A stretch of DNA of 32,684 nt. It comes from Escherichia phage Wphi. The DNA lies in the sequence record AY135739; one strand, written 5' to 3'. Shown in pieces: positions 1-32,684 of the stretch. Below the pieces are notes generated by a model. The model ran no database searches, was not told where the DNA came from, and was given only the letters and a program-made list of their open reading frames with translations. The position numbers and the translations under genes were made by a program. The stretch's first letter is position 1, and every line of letters starts with the position of its first letter.

Positions 1-19
1 GGCGAGGCGGGGAAAGCAC
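1..19. other. cos: cos cohesive-end sequence (left end of packaged P2-like genome)
   Basis: Window begins GGCGAGGCGGGGAAAGCAC, which I recognise as the P2-type 19-nt cohesive end; it sits just outside the portal/terminase module as in P2. Confidence 0.5.
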
Positions 20-160
20 TGCGCGCTGGCGGTGGTGCTGATTTTATTTTTTCAGCGTCTCAGCGCGTCGTGACGGCACTTAGTCTGCCCGTTGAGGCGT
101 TGTGTGTCTGCGGGCTGTTTTGTGCGGTGGTGAGCGTGTGAGGGTGTGATGACGGGGTGT

Positions 161-183
161 AAAAAAGCCGCCCGCAGGCGGCG
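161..183 (-). terminator. putative rho-independent terminator of leftward Q-P late transcript
   Basis: On the minus strand, GC-rich hairpin GCCGCC-TGC-GGGCGGC followed by TTTTTT, immediately downstream of the Q stop codon. Confidence 0.45.
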
Positions 184-187
184 ATGT

Positions 188-1222
188 TCAGCCGTTGTCA
201 GTGTCCAGTGAGTAGTTTTTAAAGCGGATGACCTCCTGACCGAGCCAGCCGTTTATTTCCCGAATCCTGTCCTGTAACGGGATAAGCTCATTGCGGACAA
301 AGACCTTTGCCACTTTCTCAATATCACCCAGCGACCCGACGTTCTCCGGCTTGCCGCCCATCAACTGAAAGGGGATGCGGTGCGCGTCCAGCAGGTCAGC
401 GGCGCTGGCTTTTTTGATATTAAAAAAATCGTCCTTCGTTGCGACTTCACTGAGCGGGATAATTTTAATGCCGTCGGCTTTCCCCTGTGGGGCATAGAGA
501 AACAGATTTTTAAAGTTGTTGCGGCCTTTCGACTTCACCATGTTTTCGCGAAGCATTTCGATATCGTTGCGATCCTGCACGGCATCGGTAACGTACATGA
601 TGTATCCGGCATGTGCGCCGTTTTCGTAATACTTGCGGCGGAACAGCGTGGCCGACTCATTCAGCCAGGCAGAGTTAAGGGCGCTGAGATATTCCGGCAG
701 GCCGTACAGCTCCTGATTAATATCCGGCTCCAGCAGGTGAAACACGGAGCCGGGCGCGAAGGCTGTCGGCTCGTTGAAGGACGGCACCCACCAGTAAACA
801 TCCTCTTCCACACCACGGCGGGTATATTTTGCCGGTGAGGTTTCCAGTCTGATGACTTTACCGGTAGTGCTGTAACGCTTTTCCAGAAACGCATTACCGA
901 ACACCAGAAAATCCAGCACAAAGCGGCTGAAATCCTGCTGGGACAGCCACGGATGCGGGATAAATGTCGAGGCCAGAATATTGCGTTTGACGTAAATCGG
1001 GGAGCTGTGATGCACGGCAGCACGCAGGCTTTTTGCCAGACCGGTAAAGCTGATTGGTGGCTCATACCATCTGCCGTTACTGATGCATTCGACGTAATCC
1101 AGAATGTCACGGCGGTCGAGTACCGGCACCGGTTCGCCAAAGGTGAATGCCTCCATTTTCGGGGCGCTGGCGGTCATTTTTTTTGCCGCAGGTTGCAGTG
1201 TTTTCCCTTTTTTCTTGCTCAT
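188..1222 (-). CDS. Q: portal (capsid portal vertex) protein
   Basis: 344-aa ORF; position and size match P2 gpQ next to the terminase; start ATG overlaps P stop (TGATG); GGAG upstream. Confidence 0.88.
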   Translation of the reverse strand: MSKKKGKTLQPAAKKMTASAPKMEAFTFGEPVPVLDRRDILDYVECISNGRWYEPPISFTGLAKSLRAAVHHSSPIYVKRNILASTFIPHPWLSQQDFSRFVLDFLVFGNAFLEKRYSTTGKVIRLETSPAKYTRRGVEEDVYWWVPSFNEPTAFAPGSVFHLLEPDINQELYGLPEYLSALNSAWLNESATLFRRKYYENGAHAGYIMYVTDAVQDRNDIEMLRENMVKSKGRNNFKNLFLYAPQGKADGIKIIPLSEVATKDDFFNIKKASAADLLDAHRIPFQLMGGKPENVGSLGDIEKVAKVFVRNELIPLQDRIREINGWLGQEVIRFKNYSLDTDNG

Positions 1223-2994
1223 CAGTAAAACTCCAGAATGGTGGATGTCAGCGGTGTGCTGATACCGGCGGTGAGTGGCTCATTTAACAGGGCGTGCATG
1301 GTCGCCCAGGCGAGGTCGGCGTGGCTGGCTTCCTCGCTGCGGCTGGCCTCATAGGTGGCGCTGCGTCCGCTGCTGGTCATGGTCTTGCGGATAGCCATAA
1401 ACGAGCTGGTGATGTCGGTGGCGCTGACGTCATATTCCAGACAGCCACGGCGGATGACGTCTTTTGCCTTGAGCACCATTGCGGTTTTCATTTCCGGCGT
1501 GTAGCGGATATCGCGCGCGGCGGGATAGAACGAGCGCACGAGCTGGAACACGCCGACACCGAGGCCGGTGGCATCAATACCGATGTATTCGACGTTGTAT
1601 TTTTCGGTGAGTTTGCGGATGGATTCCGCCTGAGTGGCAAAGTCCATGCCTTTCCACTGGTGACGCTCAAGTATTCTGAATTTGCCACCGGCCACCACCG
1701 GCGGTGCCAGTACCACGCATCCGGCGCTGTCGCCACGGTGTGACGGGTCGTAACCAATCCAGACCGGGCGGGAGCCGAACGGATTGGCGGCAAACGGCGC
1801 ATAGTCTTCCCATTCTTCCAGCGTGTCGACCATGCAGCGTTGCAGCTCCTCGAACGGGAATACCGACGCCTTGTCGTCAACAAATTCACACATGAACAGG
1901 TTTTTAAAATCGTCGGCGCTGTTTTCGCGTTTAAGCTGCTCAATGTCGAACAATGTGCAGCCACCTTTCAGGGCGTCCTCAATGGTGACAATCTGCCGCC
2001 ACTGGCCGTCCGCACAGAGAAGACCTCCGGCAAGGGCGTTATGACTGACGTCGATTTCCACGCGTTCGGCGGCGCTGGCGCGTCCCCGGTTAAACAGTTC
2101 ACCGGACCAGAACGGATAGGCGTCGTGCGCCAGCGTGGACGGGGTGGAGAAATAGGTCGAGCGCAGGTGACTCTGTGAGGCCATACCTGATGCCACCTTA
2201 CGCAGTACCTGAAAATTCGGGATCCAGAAAATCTCGTCGACGTACAGGTCGCCGTTATGGCTCTGTGCGGTGTTGGAGTTGGTGCCGAGAAAAATCAGTT
2301 TTGCGCCGTTATTGCCCAGGACAATCGGGTCACCGGTCAGGTCAACGTCAACCAGCCGGGCAAAGGCGATGATGTATTCACGGAACACATACGCCTGCGT
2401 TTTACTGGCCGACAGAAAAATCTGGTTATGACCGGTTTTCAGGGCGCGCAGCAGCGCCTCGCGGGAAAAATAAAACGTCGCGCCAATCTGGCGGGATTTC
2501 AGGATATCGCGGATGCGGTGCTCAAGCCCGGCGCGATACCAGTGCAACTGATATTCGAAAGACTGCTCAAAGAAAATCTGCTCCAGCTTTTCGATGGCCT
2601 CGTCACTGAAAAAATTCTTTTTCGGTTTGCGACGCCCGCCTTTGTTGCGGTTAGCGACGTTCGGATTAAGGTCTGCCTCGTTGCCGGTCTGACTGTAACG
2701 GTTGACCCGTGCCAGTCGTTCAATCTGGCGTCCGAGCAGGTCAATTTCCTTGAAGTCACCGCCGGTTTTCTGCGGTTTGATGATGAGCTGGGTCAGCCGC
2801 GCTTCCAGACTCATTTCGACACGGCTGATGGGGGCAACGCTGTCCCAGCCGTCGCGCTGTTTCCAGCTCTGCACCGTCGGGCGTTTCATCTGCAACATGG
2901 CGGCAATCTGCGGCACGGAAAACCCCTGCCAGTACAGCAGCGCCGCCTGACGACGCGGGTCGTGTAAAAGAGTGGTGTCTGTGGTGATGGTCAT
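1222..2994 (-). CDS. P: terminase large (ATPase) subunit
   Basis: ORF track gives 636 aa from 3132; I place the start at the internal ATG at 2992-2994 (MTITTDTTLL...), giving about 590 aa as expected for P2 gpP; large terminase position next to portal. Confidence 0.88.
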   Translation of the reverse strand: MTITTDTTLLHDPRRQAALLYWQGFSVPQIAAMLQMKRPTVQSWKQRDGWDSVAPISRVEMSLEARLTQLIIKPQKTGGDFKEIDLLGRQIERLARVNRYSQTGNEADLNPNVANRNKGGRRKPKKNFFSDEAIEKLEQIFFEQSFEYQLHWYRAGLEHRIRDILKSRQIGATFYFSREALLRALKTGHNQIFLSASKTQAYVFREYIIAFARLVDVDLTGDPIVLGNNGAKLIFLGTNSNTAQSHNGDLYVDEIFWIPNFQVLRKVASGMASQSHLRSTYFSTPSTLAHDAYPFWSGELFNRGRASAAERVEIDVSHNALAGGLLCADGQWRQIVTIEDALKGGCTLFDIEQLKRENSADDFKNLFMCEFVDDKASVFPFEELQRCMVDTLEEWEDYAPFAANPFGSRPVWIGYDPSHRGDSAGCVVLAPPVVAGGKFRILERHQWKGMDFATQAESIRKLTEKYNVEYIGIDATGLGVGVFQLVRSFYPAARDIRYTPEMKTAMVLKAKDVIRRGCLEYDVSATDITSSFMAIRKTMTSSGRSATYEASRSEEASHADLAWATMHALLNEPLTAGISTPLTSTILEFY

Positions 2995-3167
2995 GAATAC
3001 CTCGCCGTGATGAATCCATGGCAAGGCTACTGAGTCGCGCCCCGCGATTCGGTAAGGTGCTGTTGTGGCAGTGATAAGCCATCCGGGACTGATGGCGGAG
3101 GATGCGCATCGTCGGGAAACTGATGCCGACATGTGACTCCTCTAATCACTATTCAGGACTCCTGACA
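2995..3167. promoter_or_regulatory. divergent late promoter region (P_P leftward / P_O rightward) expected by P2 synteny
   Basis: 173-bp non-coding gap between divergently transcribed P and O; exact -10/-35 or Ogr dyad not confidently identified by eye. Confidence 0.35.
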
Positions 3168-4022
3168 ATGGCAAAAAAAGTCTCAAAATTCTTTCGTATC
3201 GGCGTTGAGGGTGACACCTGTGACGGGCGTGTCATCAGTGCGCAGGATATTCAGGAAATGGCCGAAACCTTTGACCCGCGAGTCTATGGTTGCCGCATTA
3301 ACCTGGAACATCTGCGCGGCATCCTGCCTGACGGTATTTTTAAGCGTTATGGCGATGTGGCCGAACTGAAGGCCGAAAAGATTGACGATGATTCGGCGCT
3401 GAAAGGCAAATGGGCGCTGTTTGCGAAAATCACCCCGACCGATGACCTTATCGCGATGAACAAGGCCGCGCAGAAGGTCTATACCTCAATGGAAATTCAG
3501 CCGAACTTTGCCAACACCGGCAAATGTTATCTGGTGGGGCTGGCCGTCACCGATGACCCGGCAAGCCTCGGCACGGAATACCTGGAATTCTGCCGCACGG
3601 CAAAACACAACCCCCTGAACCGCTTCAAATTAAGCCCTGAAAACCTGATTTCAGTGGCAACGGCGGTTGAGCTGGAATTTGAAGACCTGCCTGAAACCGT
3701 GTTCACAGCCCTGACCGAAAAGGTGAAATCCATTTTTGGCCGCAAACAGGCCAGCGATGACGCCCGTCTGAATGACGTGCATGAAGCGGTGACCGCTGTC
3801 GCTGAGCATGTGCAGGAAAAACTGAGCGCCACTGAGCAGCGCCTTGCTGAGATGGAAACCGCCTTTTCCGCACTTAAGCAGGATGTGACTGACAGGGCGG
3901 ATGAAACCAGTCAGGCATTCACCCGCCTGAAAAACAGTCTCGACCACACCGAAAGTCTGACCCAGCAGCGCCGCAGCAAAGCCACCGGCGGTGGCGGTGA
4001 CGCCCTGATGACGAACTGCTGA
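3168..4022 (+). CDS. O: capsid scaffolding protein
   Basis: Internal ATG at 3168 (MAKKVSKFF...) gives 284 aa, the size of P2 gpO; lies between terminase and major capsid gene. Confidence 0.85.
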   Translation: MAKKVSKFFRIGVEGDTCDGRVISAQDIQEMAETFDPRVYGCRINLEHLRGILPDGIFKRYGDVAELKAEKIDDDSALKGKWALFAKITPTDDLIAMNKAAQKVYTSMEIQPNFANTGKCYLVGLAVTDDPASLGTEYLEFCRTAKHNPLNRFKLSPENLISVATAVELEFEDLPETVFTALTEKVKSIFGRKQASDDARLNDVHEAVTAVAEHVQEKLSATEQRLAEMETAFSALKQDVTDRADETSQAFTRLKNSLDHTESLTQQRRSKATGGGGDALMTNC

Positions 4023-4080
4023 CCGGCGTCAGTCAGTCCGGGAAAACCTTCACGATTAACCCTTAATTTCAGGAAAAACT

Positions 4081-5154
4081 ATGCGCCAGGAAACCCGCTT
4101 TAAATTTAATGCCTACCTGTCCCGTGTTGCCGAACTGAACGGCATCGACGCCGGTGATGTGTCGAAAAAATTCACCGTTGAACCGTCGGTCACCCAGACC
4201 CTGATGAACACCATGCAGGAGTCCTCTGACTTTCTGACCCGGATCAACATTGTGCCGGTCAGCGAAATGAAAGGGGAAAAAATTGGTATTGGTGTCACCG
4301 GCTCCATCGCCAGCACCACCGACACCGCCGGTGGCACCGAGCGTCAGCCGAAGGACTTCTCGAAGCTGGCGTCAAACAAGTACGAATGCGACCAGATTAA
4401 CTTCGATTTTTATATCCGCTACAAAACGCTGGACCTGTGGGCGCGTTATCAGGATTTCCAGCTCCGTGTCCGTAACGCCATTATCAAACGCCAGTCCCTT
4501 GATTTAATCATGGCCGGTTTTAACGGCGTGAGGCGTGCCGAAACCTCTGACCGCAGCAGTAACCAGATGCTGCAGGATGTGGCGGTCGGCTGGCTGCAGA
4601 AATACCGCAATGAAGCCCCGGCGCGCGTGATGAGCAAGGTCACTGACGAGGAAGGTCACACGACCTCTGAGGTCATCCGCGTGGGTAAGGGGGGTGATTA
4701 TGCCAGCCTCGATGCACTGGTGATGGATGCGACCAACAACCTGATTGAGCCGTGGTATCAGGAAGACCCTGACCTTGTGGTGATTGTGGGGCGTCAGCTG
4801 CTGGCGGACAAATATTTCCCCATCGTCAACAGGGAGCAGGACAACAGCGAAATGCTGGCCGCTGACGTCATCATCAGCCAGAAACGCATCGGTAACCTGC
4901 CGGCGGTACGCGTCCCGTACTTCCCGGCGGATGCGATGCTCATCACGAAGCTGGAAAACCTGTCCATCTACTACATGGATGACAGCCATCGCCGCGTGAT
5001 TGAGGAAAACCCGAAACTCGACCGCGTGGAGAACTACGAGTCAATGAACATTGATTACGTGGTGGAAGACTACGCCGCCGGTTGTCTGGTGGAAAAAATT
5101 AAGGTCGGTGATTTCTCCACACCGGCTAAAGCGACCGCAGAGCCGGGAGCGTAA
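4081..5154 (+). CDS. N: major capsid protein
   Basis: 357-aa ORF in P2 gpN position and size; follows scaffold gene. Confidence 0.9.
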   Translation: MRQETRFKFNAYLSRVAELNGIDAGDVSKKFTVEPSVTQTLMNTMQESSDFLTRINIVPVSEMKGEKIGIGVTGSIASTTDTAGGTERQPKDFSKLASNKYECDQINFDFYIRYKTLDLWARYQDFQLRVRNAIIKRQSLDLIMAGFNGVRRAETSDRSSNQMLQDVAVGWLQKYRNEAPARVMSKVTDEEGHTTSEVIRVGKGGDYASLDALVMDATNNLIEPWYQEDPDLVVIVGRQLLADKYFPIVNREQDNSEMLAADVIISQKRIGNLPAVRVPYFPADAMLITKLENLSIYYMDDSHRRVIEENPKLDRVENYESMNIDYVVEDYAAGCLVEKIKVGDFSTPAKATAEPGA

Positions 5155-5157
5155 CCG

Positions 5158-5901
5158 ATGACGAGTCCCGCACAGCGCCACATGATGCGGGTCTCGGCAG
5201 CGATGACCGCGCAGCGGGAAGCCGCCCCGCTGCGACATGCAACTGTCTATGAGCAGATGCTGGTTAAGCTCGCCGCAGACCAGCGCACACTGAAAGCGAT
5301 TTATTCAAAAGAGCTTAAGGCCGCGAAAAAACGCGAACTGCTGCCGTTCTGGTTGCCGTGGGTGAACGGCGTGCTGGAGCAGGGCAAAGGTGCACAGGAT
5401 GACATTCTGATGACGGTCATGCTGTGGCGTCTGGATACCGGCGATATTGCCGGTGCGCTGGAGATTGCCCGTTATGCCCTGAAGTACGGTCTGACCATGC
5501 CGGGTAAACACCGCCGCACCCCGCCGTACATGTTCACCGAGGAGGTGGCGCTTGCGGCCATGCGCGCCCACGCTGCCGGTGAGTCTGTGGATACCCGCCT
5601 GCTGACGGAGACCCTTGCACTGACCGCCACGGCAGACATGCCTGATGAAGTGCGCGCAAAGCTGCACAAAATCACCGGTCTGTTTCTGCGTGACGCTGGT
5701 GATGCCGCCGGTGCGCTGGCTCACCTGCAACGTGCGACACAGCTCGACTGTCAGGCAGGCGTCAAAAAAGAGATTGAACGACTGGAGCGGGAGCTGAAAC
5801 CGAAGCCGGAGCCGCAGCCCAAAGCGGCCACCCGCGCCCTGCGTAAGACCCGGAGCGTGACACCGGCAAAACGTGGACGCCCGAAAAAGAAAGCCAGTTA
5901 A
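5158..5901 (+). CDS. M: terminase small (endonuclease) subunit
   Basis: 247-aa ORF directly after N, matching P2 gpM position and size; basic K/R-rich C-terminus. Confidence 0.85.
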   Translation: MTSPAQRHMMRVSAAMTAQREAAPLRHATVYEQMLVKLAADQRTLKAIYSKELKAAKKRELLPFWLPWVNGVLEQGKGAQDDILMTVMLWRLDTGDIAGALEIARYALKYGLTMPGKHRRTPPYMFTEEVALAAMRAHAAGESVDTRLLTETLALTATADMPDEVRAKLHKITGLFLRDAGDAAGALAHLQRATQLDCQAGVKKEIERLERELKPKPEPQPKAATRALRKTRSVTPAKRGRPKKKAS

Positions 5902-6000
5902 CAACCGAATGCGCCCCGCGCCAGGGCGGCACGCCGGTCAGTGAGGGTGAATCACCTGACGCTGTACCGGCGTCCACCGCCCGACTTTTCAGAGGTAGTC

Positions 6001-6510
6001 ATGATGACGCTGATTATTCCGCGAAAGGAGGCTCCCGTGTCCGGTGAGGGTACGGTGGTCATCCCGCAACCGGCAGGCGACGAGCCGGTGATTAAAAACA
6101 CGTTCTTTTTTCCCGATATCGACCCGAAGCGCGTCCGGGAACGTATGCGCCTTGAGCAGACCGTCGCCCCCGCCCGTCTGCGTGAGGCCATCAAGTCAGG
6201 CATGGCGGAGACGAATGCGGAGCTGTACGAGTACCGCGAACAGAAAATTGCCGCCGGTTTTACGCGTCTGGCGGACGTTCCGGCGGACGACATCGACGGT
6301 GAAAGCATCAAAGTTTTTTACTACGAGCGCGCCGTGTGTGCGATGGCGACCGCGTCGCTTTATGAGCGTTACCGCGGCGTGGATGCCAGTGCGAAAGGCG
6401 ACAAGAAGCCTGACAGCATTGACAGCACCATTGATGAGCTGTGGCGGGATATGCGCTGGGCGGTGGCGCGTATCCAGGACAAGCCGCGCTGCATCGTGAG
6501 TCAAATCTGA
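6001..6510 (+). CDS. L: head completion/stabilisation protein
   Basis: ATG at 6001 preceded by GAGGTAG gives 169 aa (P2 gpL size); ORF-track start at 5941 lacks an RBS. Confidence 0.8.
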   Translation: MMTLIIPRKEAPVSGEGTVVIPQPAGDEPVIKNTFFFPDIDPKRVRERMRLEQTVAPARLREAIKSGMAETNAELYEYREQKIAAGFTRLADVPADDIDGESIKVFYYERAVCAMATASLYERYRGVDASAKGDKKPDSIDSTIDELWRDMRWAVARIQDKPRCIVSQI

Positions 6511-6713
6511 TGAAGACCTTTGCGCTACAGGGCGACACGCTCGACGCCATTTGTGTCCGGTATTACGGGCGCACTGAGGGCGTGGTCGAGGCCGTGCTCG
6601 CCGCAAATCCGGGACTGGCTGAACTGGGTGCGGTGCTGCCACACGGCACCGCCGTCGAACTGCCCGACGTTCAGACCGCGCCCGTGGCTGAAACTGTCAA
6701 TCTGTGGGAGTAA
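6510..6713 (+). CDS. X: tail protein X (LysM-like)
   Basis: ATG at 6510 overlaps the L stop (ATGA...); 67-aa product MKTFALQGDTLDAICVRYYGRTEGV... matches P2 gpX size and position. Confidence 0.75.
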   Translation: MKTFALQGDTLDAICVRYYGRTEGVVEAVLAANPGLAELGAVLPHGTAVELPDVQTAPVAETVNLWE

Positions 6714-6716
6714 CGC

Positions 6717-6998
6717 ATGACAGCAGAAGAAAAAAGCGTCCTGTCGCTTTTCATGATTGGGGTGCTGATTGTTGTCGGCAAGGTGCTTGCCGGTGGTGAA
6801 CCCATCACCCCGCGTCTGTTTATCGGGCGCATGTTGCTCGGTGGTTTTGTCTCGATGGTTGCCGGTGTTGTTCTGGTGCAGTTTCCTGACCTGTCACTGC
6901 CTGCGGTGTGCGGCATCGGCTCCATGCTGGGTATCGCCGGTTATCAGGTGATTGAGATTGCCATTCAGCGCCGTTTTAAGGGCAGGGGGAAACAGTAA
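6717..6998 (+). CDS. Y: holin
   Basis: 93-aa protein with hydrophobic transmembrane segments and a charged C-terminus (RRFKGRGKQ); first gene of the lysis cassette as in P2. Confidence 0.8.
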   Translation: MTAEEKSVLSLFMIGVLIVVGKVLAGGEPITPRLFIGRMLLGGFVSMVAGVVLVQFPDLSLPAVCGIGSMLGIAGYQVIEIAIQRRFKGRGKQ

Positions 6999-7495
6999 TG
7001 CCGGTAATTAACACGCATCAGAATATCGCCGCCTTTCTCGACATGCTGGCAGTGTCCGAAGGGACGGCGAATCATCCGCTGACGAAAAACCGGGGCTATG
7101 ACGTGATAGTCACCGGACTGGACGGGAAGCCGGAAATTTTCACCGACTACAGTGACCACCCGTTCGCGCATGGCCGACCGGCGAAGGTGTTTAACTGTCG
7201 CGGTGAAAAATCCACGGCCTCCGGTCGCTATCAGCAGCTTTACCTGTTCTGGCCGCATTACCGCAAACAGCTTGCCCTGCCGGATTTCAGTCCGTTGTCA
7301 CAGGACAGACTCGCCATTCAGTTGATCCGCGAACGCGGTGCGCTGGATGACATCCGGGCGGGACGCATTGAGCGCGCCATTTCACGCTGTCGCAATATCT
7401 GGGCGTCCCTGCCGGGTGCCGGTTACGGTCAGCGTGAGCATTCACTGGAAAAACTGGTCACCGTCTGGCGTACCGCTGGCGGCGTACCGGCTTAA
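6998..7495 (+). CDS. K: endolysin (lysozyme-like)
   Basis: 165-aa ORF starting at TAATG overlap with Y; position and size of P2 gpK. Confidence 0.85.
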   Translation: MPVINTHQNIAAFLDMLAVSEGTANHPLTKNRGYDVIVTGLDGKPEIFTDYSDHPFAHGRPAKVFNCRGEKSTASGRYQQLYLFWPHYRKQLALPDFSPLSQDRLAIQLIRERGALDDIRAGRIERAISRCRNIWASLPGAGYGQREHSLEKLVTVWRTAGGVPA

Positions 7496-7509
7496 ACGGA
7501 GTAAACACC

Positions 7510-7935
7510 ATGAAGAAATTATCCCTTTCACTGATGCTGAACGTGTCGCTGGCGCTGATGCTGGCACTGTCCCTGATTTACCCGCAGAGCGTGGCCGTCA
7601 AGTTTGTCTGCACCTGGGCGATTCTGGCGACGGTTATCTGTGTGGTTGCCGGTGGTGTCGGCGTGTATGCCACTGAGTATGTGCTGGAACGCTACGGGCG
7701 GGAGCTGCCGCCTGAATCGCTTGCCGTGAAGATTGTCACGTCGTTGTTTTTGCAGCCGGTGCCGTGGCGCAGACGGGCGGCGGCTCTGGTGGTGATGGTG
7801 GCGACGTTTATCTCGCTGGTCGCTGCCGGGTGGATTTTTACCGCGCTGATTTACCTCGTGGCGTCGCTGTTCTTCCGGCTGATACGTACGGCCTGTCGTC
7901 AGCGTTTTGAGGGGCGGGAACCATGTCAAAGCTGA
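7510..7935 (+). CDS. lysA: lysis accessory membrane protein (putative antiholin)
   Basis: 141-aa strongly hydrophobic protein with multiple predicted TM helices; P2 lysA position and size. Confidence 0.7.
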   Translation: MKKLSLSLMLNVSLALMLALSLIYPQSVAVKFVCTWAILATVICVVAGGVGVYATEYVLERYGRELPPESLAVKIVTSLFLQPVPWRRRAAALVVMVATFISLVAAGWIFTALIYLVASLFFRLIRTACRQRFEGREPCQS

Positions 7936-8348
7936 TGATTGTGATGGTTGTGTTGTTATCGCTGGCGGTGGCGGGGCTGTTTCTGGCGAAGCATGAAAAC
8001 GCCAGCCTGCGCGCCTCGCTGGACAGGGTGAACAACGTCGCCAGTGAACAGCAGACGACCATCACCATGCTGAAAAATCAGCTTCATGTTGCCCTCACCA
8101 GGGCAGACAAAAACGAGCTGGCGCAGGTGGCACTGCGTCAGGAACTGGAGAACGCCGCGAAGCGTGAAGCACAGCGCGAGAAAACCATCACGAGGTTACT
8201 GAATGAAAACGAAGATTTTCGCCGCTGGTATGGTGCTGGCCTGCCTGATGCTGTGCGCCGGTTGCACCAGCGCCCGGCCTGCACAGACGCCAGTGATTGT
8301 CGCCAACGCCTGCCCGAAAGTGAGCCTTTGCCAGATGCCGGGCAGTGA
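7923..8348 (+). CDS. lysB: inner-membrane spanin component (Rz-like)
   Basis: 141 aa; N-terminal TM helix followed by a charged, helical (coiled-coil-like) region; P2 lysB position. Confidence 0.7.
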   Translation: MSKLMIVMVVLLSLAVAGLFLAKHENASLRASLDRVNNVASEQQTTITMLKNQLHVALTRADKNELAQVALRQELENAAKREAQREKTITRLLNENEDFRRWYGAGLPDAVRRLHQRPACTDASDCRQRLPESEPLPDAGQ

Positions 8349-8493
8349 CCCGGAGACGAACGGCGATTTAAGTGCCGATATCCGACAGCTTGAGAACGCG
8401 CTGGCACGCTGTGCCAGCCAGGTAAAAATGATTAAACACTGTCAGGACGAAAACGATGCTCAAACCCGACAGCCTGCGCAGGGCGCTGACTGA
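8203..8493 (+). CDS. lysC: outer-membrane lipoprotein spanin component (Rz1-like), embedded out of frame in lysB
   Basis: 96-aa ORF in a different frame inside lysB; signal peptide ending in lipobox-like LCAGC; GAGG RBS about 7 nt upstream of the ATG. Confidence 0.65.
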   Translation: MKTKIFAAGMVLACLMLCAGCTSARPAQTPVIVANACPKVSLCQMPGSDPETNGDLSADIRQLENALARCASQVKMIKHCQDENDAQTRQPAQGAD

Positions 8494-8923
8494 TGCCGTC
8501 ACGGTGCTGAAAACCAGTCCCGAGATGCTGCGGATATTCGTTGATAACGGGAGTATTGCCTCCACGCTGGCGACGTCGTTGTCATTCGAAAAGCGTTACA
8601 CGCTCAATGTGATTGTGACCGACTTTACCGGTGATTTTGACCTGCTCATTGTGCCGGTGCTGGCGTGGCTGCGGGAAAATCAGCCCGACATCATGACCAC
8701 CGACGCAGGCCAGAAAAAGGGCTTCACGTTTTATGCAGACATCAACAATGACAGCAGCTTTGATATCAGCATCAGCCTGATGCTGACCGAGCGCACGCTG
8801 GTCAGTGAGGTGGACGGCGCACTGCATGTGAAGAATATCCCGGAACCCCCGCCGCCGGAGCCGGTCACCCGCCCGGTGGAGCTTTATATCAATGGCGAAC
8901 TGGTGAGCAAGTGGGATGAATGA
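8456..8923 (+). CDS. R: tail completion protein
   Basis: 155-aa ORF; P2 gpR position and size. Confidence 0.8.
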   Translation: MLKPDSLRRALTDAVTVLKTSPEMLRIFVDNGSIASTLATSLSFEKRYTLNVIVTDFTGDFDLLIVPVLAWLRENQPDIMTTDAGQKKGFTFYADINNDSSFDISISLMLTERTLVSEVDGALHVKNIPEPPPPEPVTRPVELYINGELVSKWDE

Positions 8924-9368
8924 GTTTAAGCGTTTTGAAGACCGGCTGACCGGACTGATTGAATCGCTGTCACCGTCAGGGCGTCGGCGACTGAGTGCCG
9001 AACTGGCGAAGCGTCTGCGGCAGAGTCAGCAGCGTCGGGTGATGGCACAGAAAGCCCCGGACGGCACACCCTACGCGCCACGTCAGCAGCAGAGCGCCAG
9101 AAAAAAGACCGGTCGCGTTAAGCGAAAAATGTTTGCGAAACTTATCACCAGTCGTTTTTTGCATATCCGCGCCAGCCCTGAACAGGCCTCAATGGAGTTT
9201 TACGGCGGAAAGTCACCGAAAATCGCCAGTGTGCATCAGTTCGGTCTGTCGGAAGAAAACCGGAAAGACGGTAAGAAGATTGATTATCCGGCGCGTCCTC
9301 TGCTCGGCTTTACCGGTGAGGATGTGCAGATGATTGAAGAGATTATCCTGGCTCACCTCGACCGTTAG
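8916..9368 (+). CDS. S: tail completion protein
   Basis: 150-aa ORF overlapping the R end; P2 gpS position and size. Confidence 0.8.
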   Translation: MNEFKRFEDRLTGLIESLSPSGRRRLSAELAKRLRQSQQRRVMAQKAPDGTPYAPRQQQSARKKTGRVKRKMFAKLITSRFLHIRASPEQASMEFYGGKSPKIASVHQFGLSEENRKDGKKIDYPARPLLGFTGEDVQMIEEIILAHLDR

Positions 9369-9434
9369 TTGTGCCATTCCCGACACCTCATCGTCACATT
9401 GCCGCCGGTATGACCCGGCGGCATCCTTCCCGTT
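9369..9434 (+). promoter_or_regulatory. putative late promoter P_V region
   Basis: Short non-coding gap before V; contains TGT-N12-ACC, a near match to the TGT-N12-ACA dyad described for P2 late promoters. Confidence 0.3.
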
Positions 9435-14616: not shown

Positions 14617-15516
14617 ATGAGTGGTATTCGTATAACTCAGGCTATTGATAACAATCAGATTTTAGTAAATGTAAATACTTTTAATTATAGTGTTAATCCC
14701 TATCCACTCAAATGTCCTGACCCAAATTGCTCTGCTCATTTGGTGTATGTCAAAAGCCATATTCGTCGGAGTTTTAATAAAACCTTGCATATCCCCGCCT
14801 TCTTTAGACTGGAAAAAAATTTCACGCATGACAAATTATGTCAGTATGGAACTTCAGGATTGAATACAATTTATGCAAGTGATTCCAGTCATGATATCAG
14901 CCGTGCGCTTGCCACAGGTAATAATATATTCCGTATACATATACTCGATGAAGATGATATCTCTAAATTAAGCAGAAAAGCTGCAGCTATGCAGGCAAAT
15001 CCACCTTCTGATACTACAGACCGCGTTTATGTCAAGAGAGGTCGGAAAGCCCCCTATGTGAAGAACATGGATAGCTTACGGGAGATCTATGAATATGGAA
15101 AAGCTCACCCCAACAAGAGAAACAGCATAAAAATTGTTACTGGAACAAGTACTGTAACGTGGTCTGATTTTTTCTATGAAACAACGCAGTTAGAACGATT
15201 GTCAACTTACCTCCAGAAAGTAAAAATAGCTCAGGTTGCTGTAATTATGAAAGTGCATGTGGCGAGAATCCCTATGGCGAAATTTAATTATCGACACTTC
15301 ATTGAAGGTTCGCCAATGAGGATAAAAGGGGGCTTTAATATATATCCTACGATTCAATTAGGAAATGTTACTCCAAAATTATTTCCGTTGAGTAGCATTG
15401 TCATGGTACTCGGTAAATTTACTATTCCAACAAATAGAAAAATGATAATGGATCCAACATTTGAGCGTGAAGTCAGAACCATAGTTTCTAGTGAAGAGCA
15501 AGTGCTAATTCTTTGA
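14617..15516 (+). CDS. hypothetical protein, accessory (moron) gene in the Z/fun slot between G and FI
   Basis: 299-aa ORF with strong RBS (GGAGGAGTA-ATG); markedly AT-rich versus flanking tail genes; flanked by 215-bp and 319-bp non-coding gaps; no family recognised. Confidence 0.7.
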   Translation: MSGIRITQAIDNNQILVNVNTFNYSVNPYPLKCPDPNCSAHLVYVKSHIRRSFNKTLHIPAFFRLEKNFTHDKLCQYGTSGLNTIYASDSSHDISRALATGNNIFRIHILDEDDISKLSRKAAAMQANPPSDTTDRVYVKRGRKAPYVKNMDSLREIYEYGKAHPNKRNSIKIVTGTSTVTWSDFFYETTQLERLSTYLQKVKIAQVAVIMKVHVARIPMAKFNYRHFIEGSPMRIKGGFNIYPTIQLGNVTPKLFPLSSIVMVLGKFTIPTNRKMIMDPTFEREVRTIVSSEEQVLIL

Positions 15517-22219: not shown

Positions 22220-22438
22220 ATGTTTCATTGTCCTTTATGCCAGCATGCCGCACATGCGCGTACAAGCCGCTATATCACTGACACGACAAAAGAGCGTTAT
22301 CATCAGTGCCAGAACGTGAATTGCAGTGCCACGTTCATCACTTATGAGTCGGTACAGCGATACATCGTGAAGCCGGGAGAAGTCCACGCCGTAAGGCCGC
22401 ACCCGTTGCCGTCAGGGCAGCAAATTATGTGGATGTGA
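22220..22438 (+). CDS. ogr: late gene transcriptional activator, Cys4 zinc-finger
   Basis: Internal ATG at 22220 gives 72 aa MFHCPLCQHAAHARTSRY...CQNVNC with a C-x2-C...C-x4-C motif; GGAAGAGG RBS; matches P2 Ogr size and position after D. Confidence 0.85.
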   Translation: MFHCPLCQHAAHARTSRYITDTTKERYHQCQNVNCSATFITYESVQRYIVKPGEVHAVRPHPLPSGQQIMWM

Positions 22439-22481: not shown

Positions 22482-22505
22482 ATGTGGACGCTATGTGGAC
22501 AGTGG
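22482..22505 (+). repeat. tandem ATGTGGAC repeats, putative integrase arm-type binding sites (one arm of attP)
   Basis: ATGTGGACGCTATGTGGACAGTGG read from sequence; a related tandem copy occurs at 22679-22698. Confidence 0.45.
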
Positions 22506-22565
22506 TTGATATAAATCCATTTATATCATCAGGTTAGGTGCTTTTTTGTGACACCATCCCTGTCT

Positions 22566-22593
22566 TCCCCCACATGATGTGGGGGTTTTTTTT
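22566..22593 (+). terminator. hairpin plus T8 tract, terminator-like element inside the attP region
   Basis: CCCCCA-CATGATG-TGGGGG followed by TTTTTTTT; no phage gene ends here, so it may be the phage-borne copy of a host target-gene 3' end and terminator. Confidence 0.45.
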
Positions 22594-22678
22594 ATCAATC
22601 ACTTACATCGGTTTCCGTAAGAAAACAGTAACTTAAGAAAACCTATAAGGGACTGGAAGGGCTACAAAGTTCTGAGAG

Positions 22679-22698
22679 TGTGGACACTATGTGGACAC
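22679..22698 (+). repeat. tandem TGTGGACA repeats, putative integrase arm-type binding sites (other arm of attP)
   Basis: TGTGGACACTATGTGGACAC immediately downstream of the int stop codon; same motif as 22482-22505. Confidence 0.45.
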
Positions 22699-22711
22699 TC
22701 AGAAGGGAAAT

Positions 22712-23692
22712 TTATAACGTCACTCCGCCTTTTAGAGGATTCAGCGCGACGGCATTTTGCAGGTAGTCAGGCGCAAGGTGCGCATAGGCCATCGTCTGCT
22801 GAATGCTCGCATGTCCCAGAATCTGTTGCAGTGCGATTATATTGCCCCCATTCATCATGAAATGGCTTGCGAATGTATGCCGCAGGATGTGGGTTGCCTG
22901 ATTGGGTGGTATATCTGGCTTCACTCTGCGTAAAATCCCGCAAAACTTCTCATAATCAACTTTGAATAATTTAGCGCTGGCCTCCTCTTTAACTTTTTTC
23001 TCCAGTTCCTCAGAAATCGGCACGGTTCGCTTTTTACCGTTTTTGGTTTTCAGGAAGGTAACCCTGCAATTTGTAATCTGTGCTGGTTTTAGCGTGGCAA
23101 CTTCCGTCCATCTTCCTCCAGTGCTCAGACATAAAAGTGCGACAAGTAAGTCATCACCAGCCAAAACATTTAACAGTTTTTCGATTTCTGCTTTTTCCAG
23201 GAACGTCATTTCAGGGTTGGCCTCCGCCAGTGGCGGCAGTCCGTGAATTGGGTGTTGCCCGGAAAATTCATCCAATTGAATTAATTTTGTGAACATGCCG
23301 GATAATCGGTACATGTCACGGTTTATCGTTGCGGCACTGATACCATCACGTAGTCGCATGGAACGATAATCCATCAAAGCTCTTTTGCTCATCCGGCTCA
23401 CTGGTATATCACCTATGCCGCTGATGGTTTTGAGCAGATGATTAAACTCTTTTGTTCCATGCTCGTGGTTTTGCCCGTGATATTTCCACCAGATGTCCAG
23501 CAACTCACTCAAAGTTCGGCGATCTGCTCGCTGACCTGCCCATTCTTTCTGGCTGGCGTAGGCGATTGTGTATCGCTCAAATGCTACAGCCTCAGCTTTT
23601 CTTTCAAATTTCCTGCGGATGCGTTTTCCGTCGCGACCGCGAGGTCTAATGTCCACTTCATAGCGTCCATCATCGAGCTTCTTAATTGACAT
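22712..23692 (-). CDS. int: tyrosine integrase (P2-type)
   Basis: Start placed at ATG 23690-23692 (MSIKKLDDGRYEVDIRP...) with GAGGG RBS, 326 aa; the ORF-track start at 23722 (336 aa) is the alternative; C-terminal ...HILRHTFASHFMMNGGNIIALQQILGHASIQQTMAYAHL... is the tyrosine recombinase catalytic region. Confidence 0.85.
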   Translation of the reverse strand: MSIKKLDDGRYEVDIRPRGRDGKRIRRKFERKAEAVAFERYTIAYASQKEWAGQRADRRTLSELLDIWWKYHGQNHEHGTKEFNHLLKTISGIGDIPVSRMSKRALMDYRSMRLRDGISAATINRDMYRLSGMFTKLIQLDEFSGQHPIHGLPPLAEANPEMTFLEKAEIEKLLNVLAGDDLLVALLCLSTGGRWTEVATLKPAQITNCRVTFLKTKNGKKRTVPISEELEKKVKEEASAKLFKVDYEKFCGILRRVKPDIPPNQATHILRHTFASHFMMNGGNIIALQQILGHASIQQTMAYAHLAPDYLQNAVALNPLKGGVTL

Positions 23693-23761
23693 AAGAAAGC
23701 CCTCTGACGCTGTGTTCACCATCTTGGTAACAAATGGTGAAAATGTAATGTTTATAGAGTG

Positions 23762-24055
23762 TTAACCAGTCTGTTTTTCGGAGTGGTCTGATTCTGTTGG
23801 TTTTTGCCCAATGTGTGCGAGAGCCGGCGCGATCTGACCAGCTTGTGGTGACGTATCACCAGTCATTAACCAGAGCGTATATTTTTTAAATAAAGGCGTA
23901 TTTGTGACTCGCATAACGATGCTGAGACCAGGGTCTTTATGCCCACTTTCGTAATTTTTGACTGTTCCTAGAGCTATCCCGCTAATTTCGCTGAATTTCG
24001 CCTGTGTTAAGCCTTCTGCTTTCCTAATCGCTTTCAGTTTTTCGAATGTCTGCAT
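23762..24055 (-). CDS. C: immunity repressor C
   Basis: 97-aa ORF transcribed leftward just upstream of int; N-terminal helix-turn-helix-like segment; position and size as P2 C. Confidence 0.75.
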   Translation of the reverse strand: MQTFEKLKAIRKAEGLTQAKFSEISGIALGTVKNYESGHKDPGLSIVMRVTNTPLFKKYTLWLMTGDTSPQAGQIAPALAHIGQKPTESDHSEKQTG

Positions 24056-24207
24056 TTGACAGTAACCTATTGGTGACTTATATTCCCGTCAAAAGGTTGT
24101 GTATTGGTGACCTTTTGAGTGTGTTAGCCAGTCCCTAGAAAGGACAGGGGCGACCTAGAAGGGACTGGATCTAATAAGGGTAACACGAAAGCAAAAAGGG
24201 CTAATCA
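24056..24207. promoter_or_regulatory. C/cox developmental switch region (divergent Pc/Pe promoters and operators)
   Basis: 152-bp gap between divergent C and cox containing a 10-bp direct repeat TATTGGTGAC (24068-24077 and 24103-24112) and an 8-bp inverted repeat CCAGTCCC...GGGACTGG flanking two CTAGAA copies (about 24122-24162). Confidence 0.45.
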
Positions 24208-24480
24208 ATGGAAGTCAATGACTATGTGATTCAGTACCCGATTGATGCGGTACATACGGTTAAGTTTGCAGAGTTACTTGGTAAGCCAGAAACGGCTGTA
24301 GTCAAGATGGTAAAAGAGAATAAATTGCCAGTTATTGAGCTTCGTGATCCAAGTAAGCCGAACGCTCGTGTCGGTGAGAAGTGGGTTTTCATTCCAGAGT
24401 TTAATCGCGCTGTACGAGAGGCGTTTTATAACCGACCAGTTGAACAGCGTGATGCATGGCTTTTGTGGATGGGGTTGTGA
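24208..24480 (+). CDS. cox: Cox excisionase/repressor of Pc
   Basis: 90-aa ORF, first rightward early gene opposite C, as P2 cox. Confidence 0.7.
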   Translation: MEVNDYVIQYPIDAVHTVKFAELLGKPETAVVKMVKENKLPVIELRDPSKPNARVGEKWVFIPEFNRAVREAFYNRPVEQRDAWLLWMGL

Positions 24481-24482
24481 TT

Positions 24483-24653
24483 ATGAGTGAACCGCGTTGT
24501 ATTGCTCAGTTACTGCGTAACGAAAGCCCCAGGGCGATTGACTTCACCATCACCCACGGTAAGGGGCGTAAGGGAATCATTATCCGCACCAAAAAACAGA
24601 GTCCGGTAAAAAAGGCTCTGACCTTTCTGAAAAGCCGGAGGGTCTGGAAATGA
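24483..24653 (+). CDS. hypothetical early protein (P2 orf78 position)
   Basis: ATG at 24483 right after the cox stop (MSEPRCIAQLL...), 56 aa, basic; stop overlaps the B start (ATGA). Confidence 0.45.
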   Translation: MSEPRCIAQLLRNESPRAIDFTITHGKGRKGIIIRTKKQSPVKKALTFLKSRRVWK

Positions 24654-25150
24654 CAGTGATGACGCTCAATCTCGTTGAAAAACAGCCAGCAGCTATGCGC
24701 CGGATAATTGGTAAGCATCTGGCCGTCCCTCGCTGGCAGGAGACATGCGATTATTATAATCAGATGATGGAACGCGAACGGCTAACGGTTTGCTTTCATG
24801 CGCAGTTAAAACAACGTCACGCAACGATGCGTTTTGAAGAAATGAACGACGTCGAACGTGAACGGCTGGTTTGTGCAATTGATGAATTGCGTGGGGCATT
24901 CTCAAAACGCCGTCAGGTTGGCGCAAGTGAGTATGCATATATTAGTTTTTTAACAGTCAGTCAGCGCCGTACTTTATTTATGCACGCACGACTGACAGAA
25001 AAAGAATTTAACCAGCCATACTGGCGAATTAATGAAGAGTCATGTTACTGGCGTGATGCTTTATTCCGTGCATTACGTGAATTATTCAGTCTGTTTGAGT
25101 ATGCACCGACAATTCTGACGTCGGTAAAACCAGAGCAATATCTGCATTAA
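24650..25150 (+). CDS. B: replication protein B (helicase-loader-like)
   Basis: 166-aa ORF in P2 gene B position and size in the early operon. Confidence 0.8.
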   Translation: MTVMTLNLVEKQPAAMRRIIGKHLAVPRWQETCDYYNQMMERERLTVCFHAQLKQRHATMRFEEMNDVERERLVCAIDELRGAFSKRRQVGASEYAYISFLTVSQRRTLFMHARLTEKEFNQPYWRINEESCYWRDALFRALRELFSLFEYAPTILTSVKPEQYLH

Positions 25151-25213
25151 GTAATTAACCAGAGTTTTTAACGCACTTAATCGTGCGGGGCTTCTTTTTG
25201 CCTGGAGAAAGTC

Positions 25214-25438
25214 ATGCATACAGTTTCTGAAAATCAGTGCGGTAAATTCGCATTACTGCTGCAACAGGCCAGAACCGAAGCACAGGCCGACGCTGCGACG
25301 CGCTTTTCTTCTCATCTTGACGCCATGATTCGCCACATCACAAAGGCGGAGTTATCCCGCGTGGAGATAGTCGAGCTGCTCAGTCAGGAGTCGGAAAAAT
25401 TTCACAACATCGGATTGTCTCGCGGGGAGGTGCTTTGA
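25214..25438 (+). CDS. hypothetical early protein (P2 orf80 position)
   Basis: 74-aa ORF with GGAGAAAGTC-ATG RBS. Confidence 0.5.
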
Positions 25439-25740
25439 TGTCCTGTTCTCATTCAGTTGTATTACTGAACAATGCCTTAAAAATCGCCGTTATGAAAAAT
25501 GGCGATTTGTCTCTTATTCAACTTGGTCTTGATAAAGAAAAACGCGAAATAACTGAATCTGTTATCGCGATTTATCAGAGTGAATTAAACCTCCTGTCTG
25601 ATGTGGTCAATTTACTTGTTAAACGCGCTGTATTTCACAAGCAAATTTCCTCCGTGGATGAACTGACGAAATTAACGACAGAAATCGCCAGCTATTGCGC
25701 TGATGAATTTAAAAAACTGAACGACAAAAGGAACTGGTAA
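25438..25740 (+). CDS. hypothetical early protein (P2 orf81 position)
   Basis: ORF-track start 25435 is TTG; the ATG at 25438 overlaps the upstream stop (TGATG), giving 100 aa. Confidence 0.5.
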   Translation: MSCSHSVVLLNNALKIAVMKNGDLSLIQLGLDKEKREITESVIAIYQSELNLLSDVVNLLVKRAVFHKQISSVDELTKLTTEIASYCADEFKKLNDKRNW

Positions 25741-25964
25741 TGCCGGACAACGTAGATTTCATTCAGGAACAACAGGCTGAATTACTGGAGCGCCAGATTA
25801 ACGCGGCAAGGGTAAAACATTGTGGTGCTTCTGCGCTGGTTTGCGAAGAGTGTGACGCGCCAATACCTGCTGCCCGTCGTGCAGCTTATCCGTCAGCCAC
25901 GCGTTGTGTTTCCTGCCAGTCAGTCTTTGAAGCAAAAAACAAGCATTACCGGAGAATGGCATGA
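25740..25964 (+). CDS. TraR/DksA-family C4 zinc-finger protein (P2 orf82 position)
   Basis: 74 aa with CGASALVCEEC...CVSC (C-x7-C-x2-C...C-x2-C) near the C-terminus, the TraR/DksA-type finger arrangement. Confidence 0.6.
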   Translation: MPDNVDFIQEQQAELLERQINAARVKHCGASALVCEECDAPIPAARRAAYPSATRCVSCQSVFEAKNKHYRRMA

Positions 25965-26236
25965 GTATTCGTATCGAAATTGGCGAACGTTATGTCGTTA
26001 CCAGTGACAGCTTTCAGTTTATTCTCCACGAGAAAAAGAGAGCGGAAAGCGGTAAAAACGCCGGTCAGGAATGGCTGGCGGTGGTTGGTTATTACCCGAA
26101 ATTAAGCCAGCTCGTTTCCGGCCTGATGCATCACGATATTCTGACCGGAAGCGCAAAGTCTTTTGCTGATTTAAACGCGCAGGTTGAGCAACTCAGCAAG
26201 CGTTGTTCAGAGGCTTTTGGCTCATATGGCCGTTAA
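25961..26236 (+). CDS. hypothetical early protein (P2 orf83 position)
   Basis: 91-aa ORF, ATGA overlap with the preceding gene; 3' end overlaps the A start. Confidence 0.45.
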   Translation: MSIRIEIGERYVVTSDSFQFILHEKKRAESGKNAGQEWLAVVGYYPKLSQLVSGLMHHDILTGSAKSFADLNAQVEQLSKRCSEAFGSYGR

Positions 26237-28511: not shown

Positions 28512-28789
28512 TGGCAAAAATTCACGAGGTAAAGCTGCACGCAAAATATTTCGACCTTGTGCTGGAAGGAAAGAAACGCGCAGAGTTTCGGAAAAATGAC
28601 CGTAATTATGAGCGCGGGGACACGTTGATTTTGCATGAATGGGTACAGGGTGTGTTTACGGGGCGAAAGGTTGAAGCCCGGATAACAGATGTTACTGACC
28701 TGTCAGACTGGCTGGAAGATTATGTCTTGCTAAGTATTGAGCTGCTTAATACAGGCGTATATGAGATTGTGAACTGGAAAGAAACTTAG
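28508..28789 (+). CDS. hypothetical protein, ASCH/DUF3850-like (P2 orf91 position)
   Basis: ATG at 28508 overlaps the A stop (ATGA); about 93 aa MMAKIHEVKLHAKYFDLVLEGKKRAEFRKNDRNYERGD... Confidence 0.55.
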   Translation: MMAKIHEVKLHAKYFDLVLEGKKRAEFRKNDRNYERGDTLILHEWVQGVFTGRKVEARITDVTDLSDWLEDYVLLSIELLNTGVYEIVNWKET

Positions 28790-28828
28790 TGAGCCGTGGC
28801 TTGGTATTCAGAAATTAATCATGAAATT

Positions 28829-29023
28829 ATGCATCAGCTCGGCCTTGCTGTTATGTATGAACCAGAGACGGGGATGTCTGGCGGGGCAATGGTTGCCACG
28901 GATGGAGCATGGAACTATTCAGATGAACAGATGGAGCCGTGCACAGCAAAACGGGTGGCTTGGATAATGCACAGAATACCAGGCGAGATACCCGCACCCA
29001 TAAAACTAAAAATATCAAGCTGA
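28829..29023 (+). CDS. questionable small ORF at the accessory-island boundary
   Basis: ORF-track start 28796 is GTG; first ATG at 28829 has no convincing RBS; 64 aa, no recognisable features. Confidence 0.2.
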   Translation: MHQLGLAVMYEPETGMSGGAMVATDGAWNYSDEQMEPCTAKRVAWIMHRIPGEIPAPIKLKISS

Positions 29024-29380
29024 TGGCTATTGTTCAGCGTTTACCAGCGGATTATGGTCAACGAAAATCTGACGCCCGATGAGCTGGTCGGGTGTGCCGA
29101 AATAGTCCGGGATAATTACGGGCGGTTTAACCATATCGGTCAGTCCAGAGTTGCGCCACCACAACGCAGACGATAGAGAACGCCGCCAGTCGTGAAACTT
29201 GTTTTCAGGGCTGGCGGGGTTGAATAACGAGTGTCGCGAGGCGTTAGTTTGAGCTTACAATTAAACCTATTGAAAATTAATGAGAAGTCAATTTTATCTT
29301 TTTCTCGTTAAAGATGGCCACAACTACTAAAACGTGAGAATATCAAGACTTGGCAAAATCTAGCTTTTCCCAACGGGGTG

Positions 29381-29418
29381 TTTCGCTATAATACGCGGTC
29401 GGTTTTTAGGAGGGGTCA
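29381..29418 (+). promoter_or_regulatory. putative promoter -10 element and RBS for the methyltransferase gene
   Basis: Consensus TATAAT at 29387-29392; AGGAGG at 29407-29412, 6 nt before the ATG; no good -35 seen. Confidence 0.4.
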
Positions 29419-32457: not shown

Positions 32458-32684
32458 CTTAACCTCATGGGATGATGTAAATATCTTTTGGGGGATGCTT
32501 GATAAAACATCCATATTTGATCGTTTGCAGCGCATTTGATACATCGAAGTGTACAAAAATGCTGGGCATAACTCTGCATTAAAATGCATTCACATTCAAA
32601 GCACTATTTTCTCGTTGGACATTTAGCCTAAGAGAGTTTGGACGGCTTTTGGAATTGCATCAAAACCGACCCATGAAGCGGGCG

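Follow-up and report, generated by a model that had tools for sequence, protein, structure and literature searches.

The window (the whole stretch of DNA analysed here, 32,684 bp) opens with a cohesive-end sequence of the P2 type, followed by a non-coding interval, a terminator and the leftward packaging genes Q and P, with the small terminase gene M further along.

1–19, plus strand: cosL, the 19-nt cohesive-end sequence, by identity with P2 1–19 and P4 1–19
20–26, plus strand: right flank of the 55-bp cos core, TGCGCGC, kept in P2, 186 and P4 (CGCGCGC in P4)
27–156, no strand: non-coding G/T-rich spacer from the cos core to the end of the Q operon
157–182, minus strand: tQ, rho-independent terminator of the leftward P-Q operon (stem 167–182, T-run to about 157)
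188–1222, minus strand: Q, portal protein, 344 aa (Pfam Phage_portal; TIGR01540, 4e-74)
1222–2994, minus strand: P, large terminase (ATPase/nuclease) subunit, 590 aa (Terminase_5 (gpP-like), Terminase_6N and Terminase_6C)
5158–5901, plus strand: M, small terminase/endonuclease subunit, acting on cos with P (Pfam Phage_term_smal, 4.5e-48)

The first 19 nucleotides, GGCGAGGCGGGGAAAGCAC, are the same as the annotated cosL of P2 (AF063097, 1–19) and the first 19 nt of P4. They have a single match in the window on both strands, even with up to three mismatches allowed, and the 19-mer was found in 0 of 100 dinucleotide-preserving shuffles used as controls. The cohesive end of phage 186 differs from it at 2 positions. 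The ends of P2, P4 and 186 were determined experimentally; in the annotation of the 186 record they are 5' protruding, with the equivalent position described as 'top strand cut at 5' end and bottom strand cut at 3' end'. By homology with P2, 186 and P4, bases 1–19 would protrude as a 5' single strand from the left end of the virion DNA. The initial annotation had placed a P2-type 19-nt cohesive end at the opening of the window, with the leftward Q-P packaging genes next to it, and both statements hold: identity to P2 and P4 is exact over 1–19 and unique in the window, while Q and P are recognised on the minus strand by Pfam and NCBIfam models.

Across 1–187, 182 of the 187 positions are identical to P2 1–186. 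Similarity to P4 ends after position 26, falling to 0.33 identity over 27–56, a stretch with 0.93 identity to P2. The spacer (27–156) is partially conserved in 186, is without counterpart in P4 or in the second E. coli W prophage, Wphi2, and has no ORF of at least 80 aa starting within it. The P2-type spacer is widespread, a 101-bp query (40–140) being 98% identical in many E. coli genomes. On the minus strand the terminator reads GCCGCC-TGCG-GGCGGC, then TTTTTT, and its RNA folds at -17.7 kcal/mol (z = -2.1). Its homologue in P2 is the tQ annotated at 160–181, and the stop codon of Q lies at 188. Collinear P2 counterparts exist for gpQ (187–1221) and gpP (1221–2993), with gpM at 5157–5900, and the block containing P and Q (window 1–9370) has 97.5% DNA identity to P2. 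The terminase subunits gpM and gpP and the portal gpQ are all encoded in the window, as identified by Pfam.

At the opposite end, gene A is followed by an accessory region that runs up to the other part of the cos core. An ORF at the Z/fun locus is listed alongside it.

14617–15516: 299-aa ORF at the P2 Z/fun locus, differing from P2 (phrog_7195)
26226–28511: A
28732–32655, no strand: cos-proximal accessory cargo in place of P2 tin/old, with no similarity to P2
29419–30357, plus strand: C5 cytosine methyltransferase (Pfam, 1e-61; PADLOC DruM/MTase_II)
30354–31391, minus strand: hypothetical protein (phrog_3984; no Pfam match)
31384–32457, minus strand: ParB-N-like protein (PADLOC PD-Lambda-5_A N-terminus, 3e-24; PDC-M38A, 9e-25)
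32656–32684, plus strand: left half (29 bp) of the 55-bp cos core, TGCATCAAAACCGACCCATGAAGCGGGCG

The methyltransferase gene converges on a two-gene minus-strand operon for the hypothetical and ParB-N-like proteins. A Pfam search of these two proteins (30354–31391 and 31384–32457) found no family, while a PDB sequence search with both gave marginal ParB/Spo0J N-terminal matches (E about 0.03) and nothing else credible. For roughly one in four P2-like hotspots, Rousset et al. (2022, PMC9122126) mention genes for 'putative plasmid partitioning', which may be the same as those of the cargo operon. Z/fun is a second locus at which accessory content differs from P2, and its 299-aa ORF (14617–15516) has no match in Pfam, PADLOC or NCBIfam. 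With regard to composition, the whole window is strongly depleted in GATC (30 observed against 129 expected under a second-order Markov model) and depleted in CCWGG (38 against 91), with GGCC mildly low (118 against 178).

The final bases of the window, ...TGCATCAAAACCGACCCATGAAGCGGGCG, stop one base short of where the 19-mer begins in the circular form. The last 23 nt, AAAACCGACCCATGAAGCGGGCG, align to P2 33552–33574, directly before the right-end 19-mer of P2. In the P2 record the homologous ...TGCATTAAAACCGCCCCGTGAAGCGGGCG directly adjoins this right-end copy (33575–33593, annotated cosR), and the window therefore stops on the base preceding cos. Joining 32656–32684 to 1–26 gives a 55-bp core laid out as 29 bp on the left, the 19-mer and 7 bp on the right, which is identical at 52 of 55 positions to P2 and at 49 of 55 to both P4 and 186. 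Conservation with P4 stops at both borders, the 30-bp blocks flanking the core having 0.33–0.37 identity. The core match, together with this drop, fits the 55-bp cos common to P2 and P4 as described in two papers that cite Ziermann and Calendar (1990) (PMC9594776; PMC2231350). In the circular form, cos lies at the junction between A (26226–28511) with the cargo (28732–32655) and Q (188–1222), an A-cos-Q interval known as a hotspot (Rousset et al. 2022, PMC9122126).

The junction between 32684 and 1 is unbroken in the E. coli W prophage. A rebuilt cos junction of 600 bp is found unbroken in 103 complete E. coli genomes; among the matches listed, the top ones are all chromosomal and carry the label 'ParB N-terminal domain protein | phage portal protein'. 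The records of HQ103, R18C, P4 and 186 start and end at the same nucleotides as the window. In the records of P2 and L-413C the 19-mer stands a second time, at the right end, whereas the window gives it once.

Further features bearing on the form of the molecule are found near the middle of the window, around the attachment site.

22220–22438, plus strand: ogr, late-gene activator, 72 aa, last gene before attP (NF007241 full length, 4.6e-53; Pfam Ogr_Delta)
22482–22697, no strand: attP, comprising P-arm repeats, 47-bp core and P'-arm repeats
22482–22501: P-arm direct repeats ATGTGGAC..ATGTGGACA
22550–22596: 47-bp att core GACACCATCCCTGTCTTCCCCCACATGATGTGGGGGTTTTTTTTATC
22678–22697: P'-arm repeats GTGTGGACA..ATGTGGACA
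22712–23722, minus strand: int, tyrosine integrase (Pfam Int_N and Phage_integrase)
23762–24480, no strand: immunity switch, with C repressor, Pe/Pc operator region and cox
23762–24055, minus strand: C repressor (HTH_3)
24208–24480, plus strand: cox (Phage_Cox)

By analogy with the P2 annotation, the arm repeats of attP are putative Int arm sites. The start codon of int may alternatively lie at 23692, as in the E. coli W annotation. The int gene matches 'phage integrase' at 100% in many E. coli chromosomes, with the match beginning at window 22550, and a query across ogr-attP-int gives E. coli chromosome matches only from 22550 rightwards. It had been stated at the outset that ogr, attP and int are contiguous, and that an integrated form would be split at attP with int at one end and ogr at the other. 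The contiguity is confirmed (22220–22438 on the plus strand, 22482–22697, and 22712–23722 on the minus strand), and the split form is seen in E. coli W: a search of host genomes for a divided attP core found a prophage there that is split exactly at the 47-bp core.

In E. coli W (NC_017635.1) this prophage lies between cpxP and fieF, with int adjoining cpxP, ogr adjoining fieF and cos internal. Its order is int, C, cox, B, A, methyltransferase, two unknown genes, cos, Q, P, O ... D, ogr. The prophage at this position was named 'Wphi1' (Archer et al., PMC3032704), and the coordinates of its E. coli W sequence are given here as L003, those of Wphi2 being L011. By BLAST, window 22550–32684 corresponds to L003 3342–13469 at 99.89% and window 1–22596 to L003 13470–36066 at 99.66%. 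Base 32684 of the window is L003 13469 and base 1 is L003 13470; as these are neighbouring bases in the prophage, nothing lies between them. The two matching segments overlap by 47 bp, hence the att core is duplicated at attL and attR. The core was defined by this overlap and checked with attL, attR and attB. It is present at both Wphi1 ends with the expected host and phage flanks, and attP is composed of the ogr-side flank of attR, the core and the int-side flank of attL. Rotation of Wphi1 to a start at cos gives 32,678 bp, and these align to the window over its entire length at 99.73%. The empty attB of K-12 carries the core with 1 mismatch at NC_000913.3 4106344–4106390, and the host sequence on either side is the same. 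Table 1 of PMC3448106 places the WΦ site at 4104392 of MG1655, an offset of about 2 kb that probably comes from a different MG1655 coordinate version.

At the host locus, the att core (1345–1391 in the K-12 locus coordinates, L006, equal to NC_000913.3 4106344–4106390) covers the final 44 nt of cpxQ, an sRNA gene annotated as 58 nt long (4106330–4106387); this part is the cpxP terminator hairpin. Integration rebuilds the 3' end of the sRNA at attL from phage DNA, with one loop base being A in place of the C of K-12. Other P2-like prophages of E. coli W are also located at sRNA genes, rybB and cyaR (Archer et al., PMC3032704). A tRNA scan of the whole window found none, placing the att core outside any tRNA, and an Rfam scan of the whole window at gathering thresholds found no curated RNA family.

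Identity with WΦ was addressed through published sequences. All five WΦ oligonucleotides (PMC1904263) are found exactly in the window within 23726–24161, namely the 56-nt Pe promoter/operator oligonucleotide at 24056–24111 and four primers (two C-gene, two operator) at 23726, 24018, 24030 and 24143. In collinear comparison with P2, orf30 between S and V is missing from the window, and WΦ is described as being without orf30 (Lavigne et al., PMC2771037). The window shares with WΦ (RefSeq NC_005056, as cited in PMC3448106 and PMC2771037) the immunity region (C, Pe/Pc), the cpxP-fieF attachment site and the absence of orf30. Among phage records, queries with 1–3200, 28500–32684 and 1–25000 found none identical to the window; the nearest matches were at 97.7–97.9% overall (HQ103), and the right-end cargo by itself matches OU784549 at 99.5%.

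P2 (AF063097/NC_001895) is collinear with the window at 94–97.5% over approximately 78% of the genome, has the same 19-nt cohesive end and tQ, and likewise harbors cos between an accessory hotspot and Q. In the core, three substitutions separate the window from P2, all within the left half, and 186 shares two of these with the window. However, P2 carries another attP core-int-C-cox module, and therefore attB and immunity differ; its cargo at the Z/fun and tin/old loci is unlike that of the window, and orf30 is present in P2. Satellite P4 (NC_001609) shares the 19-mer and the core, with no similarity beyond the 55 bp, and is without its own terminase or portal, using the core for packaging by a P2-type terminase (PMC9122126; PMC2231350).

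The P2 record spans 33,593 bp, of which the unit length is 33,574 bp (33593-19), making the window 890 bp shorter. Comparison of collinear blocks distributes this difference as follows.

orf30 region: -874 bp
Z/fun locus (smaller cargo): -941 bp
attP core-int-C-cox module: +6 bp
A-to-cos cargo (larger): +918 bp
small indels: +1 bp
total: -890 bp

Internal indels thus account for the whole 890 bp, and no truncation is needed. On these grounds we hold with high confidence that the 32,684 bp of the window make up the entire unit-length genome of a temperate myovirus of the P2 type, set out as the linear molecule of the virion; the same confidence extends jointly to the phage being WΦ of E. coli W, or an isolate almost identical to it, and to base 1 lying at the top-strand terminase nick. 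The packaged, cos-linear orientation proposed in the initial annotation, as opposed to prophage order, is supported by the intact attP and by the E. coli W counterpart, which is split at the att core and has cos inside it.

The same annotation had placed a further 1 kb or so, up to the right cos end, beyond the window. This estimate arose from comparison with the 33.6 kb of P2, and the window is indeed about 0.9 kb shorter than that reference record (32,684 against 33,593 bp). However, 19 bp of the P2 record are the repeated cohesive end, and the remaining shortfall is wholly internal. In addition, the window closes with the left half of the cos core, 29 bases that run up to the exact point at which the right-end 19-mer of P2 begins. 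Bases 32684 and 1 adjoin each other in the E. coli W prophage, and the junction is contiguous in the 103 genomes. The P2 length sum, the abutment in the prophage and the end-to-end alignment with the rotated prophage rule out a truncated genome, whose probability is close to nil. Equally negligible is the proposal that the window is a piece of host chromosome, an integrated prophage beginning by chance at its internal cos. Every integrated P2-like prophage does have cos internally, but such a piece should carry cpxP-side and fieF-side host flanks, as in E. coli W, and the window contains zero host genes. Moreover, ogr-attP-int is unbroken with one copy of the core, and both ends fall on the cos nick to the base, as a random cut would not. 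This origin is ruled out by the intact attP, the abutting ends and the comparison with attL and attR.

A different question is whether the sequence was obtained from a prophage or circular assembly that was excised in silico, circularised and rotated to cos by convention. Of the closest phage records, approximately half begin at cos and the rest at arbitrary points, implying that the start is partly the depositor's choice, and the window is 99.7% identical to a chromosomal prophage. On the other side, it differs from the E. coli W assembly at 87 alignment columns, has O and K in intact frames, and shows a single att core with exact unit length. The 87 differences and intact O and K indicate that the window was not derived from the E. 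coli W assembly. We consider rotation by convention possible but on the unlikely side; if true, the complete genome and the P2-position cos still stand, and only the provenance of the ends changes.

The differences between the window and Wphi1 (87 alignment columns) are clustered. The 40-bp patch 61–101 beside cos is P2-type in the window and replaced in Wphi1; in the capsid gene N, 11 consecutive variants (4431–4713) carry the Wphi2 allele; and seven single-base indels relative to Wphi1 fall within 28784–29044. A total of 36 positions are unique to the window, Wphi1 and Wphi2 agreeing with each other there. Recombination between Wphi1 and Wphi2 could account for this clustering, as could sequencing or assembly error. 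Archer et al. (PMC3032704) name Wphi1 and Wphi2 as the most difficult part of their E. coli W assembly. The genes O (scaffold, 3168–4022) and K (endolysin, 6998–7495), intact in the window, are annotated as frameshifted pseudogenes in E. coli W (L003 16638–17491 and 20467–20965), their frames being broken by single-base indels at window positions 3806 and 7049. These frameshifts are probably homopolymer errors in the 2011 assembly rather than signs of a defective prophage.

Wphi2, located by walking the E. coli W chromosome, has accessory genes for an AAA-family ATPase and a hypothetical protein between cos and Q (L011 about 33558–35826, NC_017635.1 about 2328558–2330826), which is the opposite side of cos from the cargo of the window and P2. 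It is without a homologue of window 27–241, the cos core alone being common. As only the core is shared and the cargo of Wphi2 lies across cos, either cos flank can take cargo.

Phage exclusion has historically been ascribed to 'prophage W'. It is doubtful, when the two are taken jointly, that the sequenced phage is a mosaic rather than a plain Wphi1 copy and, as a separate matter, that the cos-adjacent trio of methyltransferase, hypothetical protein and ParB-N-like protein is the determinant of this exclusion. Were the mosaic reading true and no artefact, it would show directly that P2-like prophages resident in one host undergo gene conversion, also beside the cohesive end, a process on which Rousset et al. 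(2022, PMC9122126) have speculated.

A pathway from virion to prophage can be proposed on the model of P2, 186 and P4. The terminase subunits gpM (5158–5901) and gpP (1222–2994) would recognise the cos core, which forms only when 32656–32684 is joined to 1–26, and would nick it with a 19-bp stagger to leave complementary 5' single strands of 19 nt on the packaged DNA, with the portal gpQ (188–1222) as the entry vertex. After injection the ends would anneal and be ligated, restoring the circle. Int (22712–23722), with host IHF, would recombine the attP core (22550–22596) with attB at the cpxP/cpxQ terminator. The resulting prophage would have the order of the window in rotated form, with int and ogr at the two ends and cos internal. 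Since some 22.5 kb separates cos from attP, the map of the virion, given by the window, is a circular permutation of that of the prophage in E. coli W. For this phage, the cleavage chemistry, 5' polarity, closed-circle substrate and IHF dependence are presumed from the biology of P2, 186 and P4, while identity with these phages suggests that virion cleavage to 5'-protruding 19-nt ends occurs at these nucleotides.

Phage lambda offers the familiar parallel, in which a sequence-specific terminase makes staggered nicks and the complementary 5' single-stranded ends re-anneal after injection. There too, att and cos lie at different places, and hence the maps of prophage and virion are permutations of each other. 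The two systems differ in that the lambda overhang has 12 nt of unrelated sequence, in contrast to 19 nt in the P2 type, and in that the terminase and portal genes follow cos in lambda, whereas in this phage they flank it divergently. Furthermore, lambda packages concatemers, while the 19-nt ends of P2 and P4 are cut from closed circular monomers, which are then packaged (PMC2231350).

The cos site and the phage are already known, and knowledge of P2-type packaging is unchanged. What follows is that the window is a complete, circularisable genome whose two ends have to be read together: each holds a part of the cos core, and the cargo operon of the right end lies about 200 bp from the Q terminator of the left. 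No biology should be rested on a supposed missing kilobase, and the virion and prophage maps form a clean worked example of cos/att permutation.
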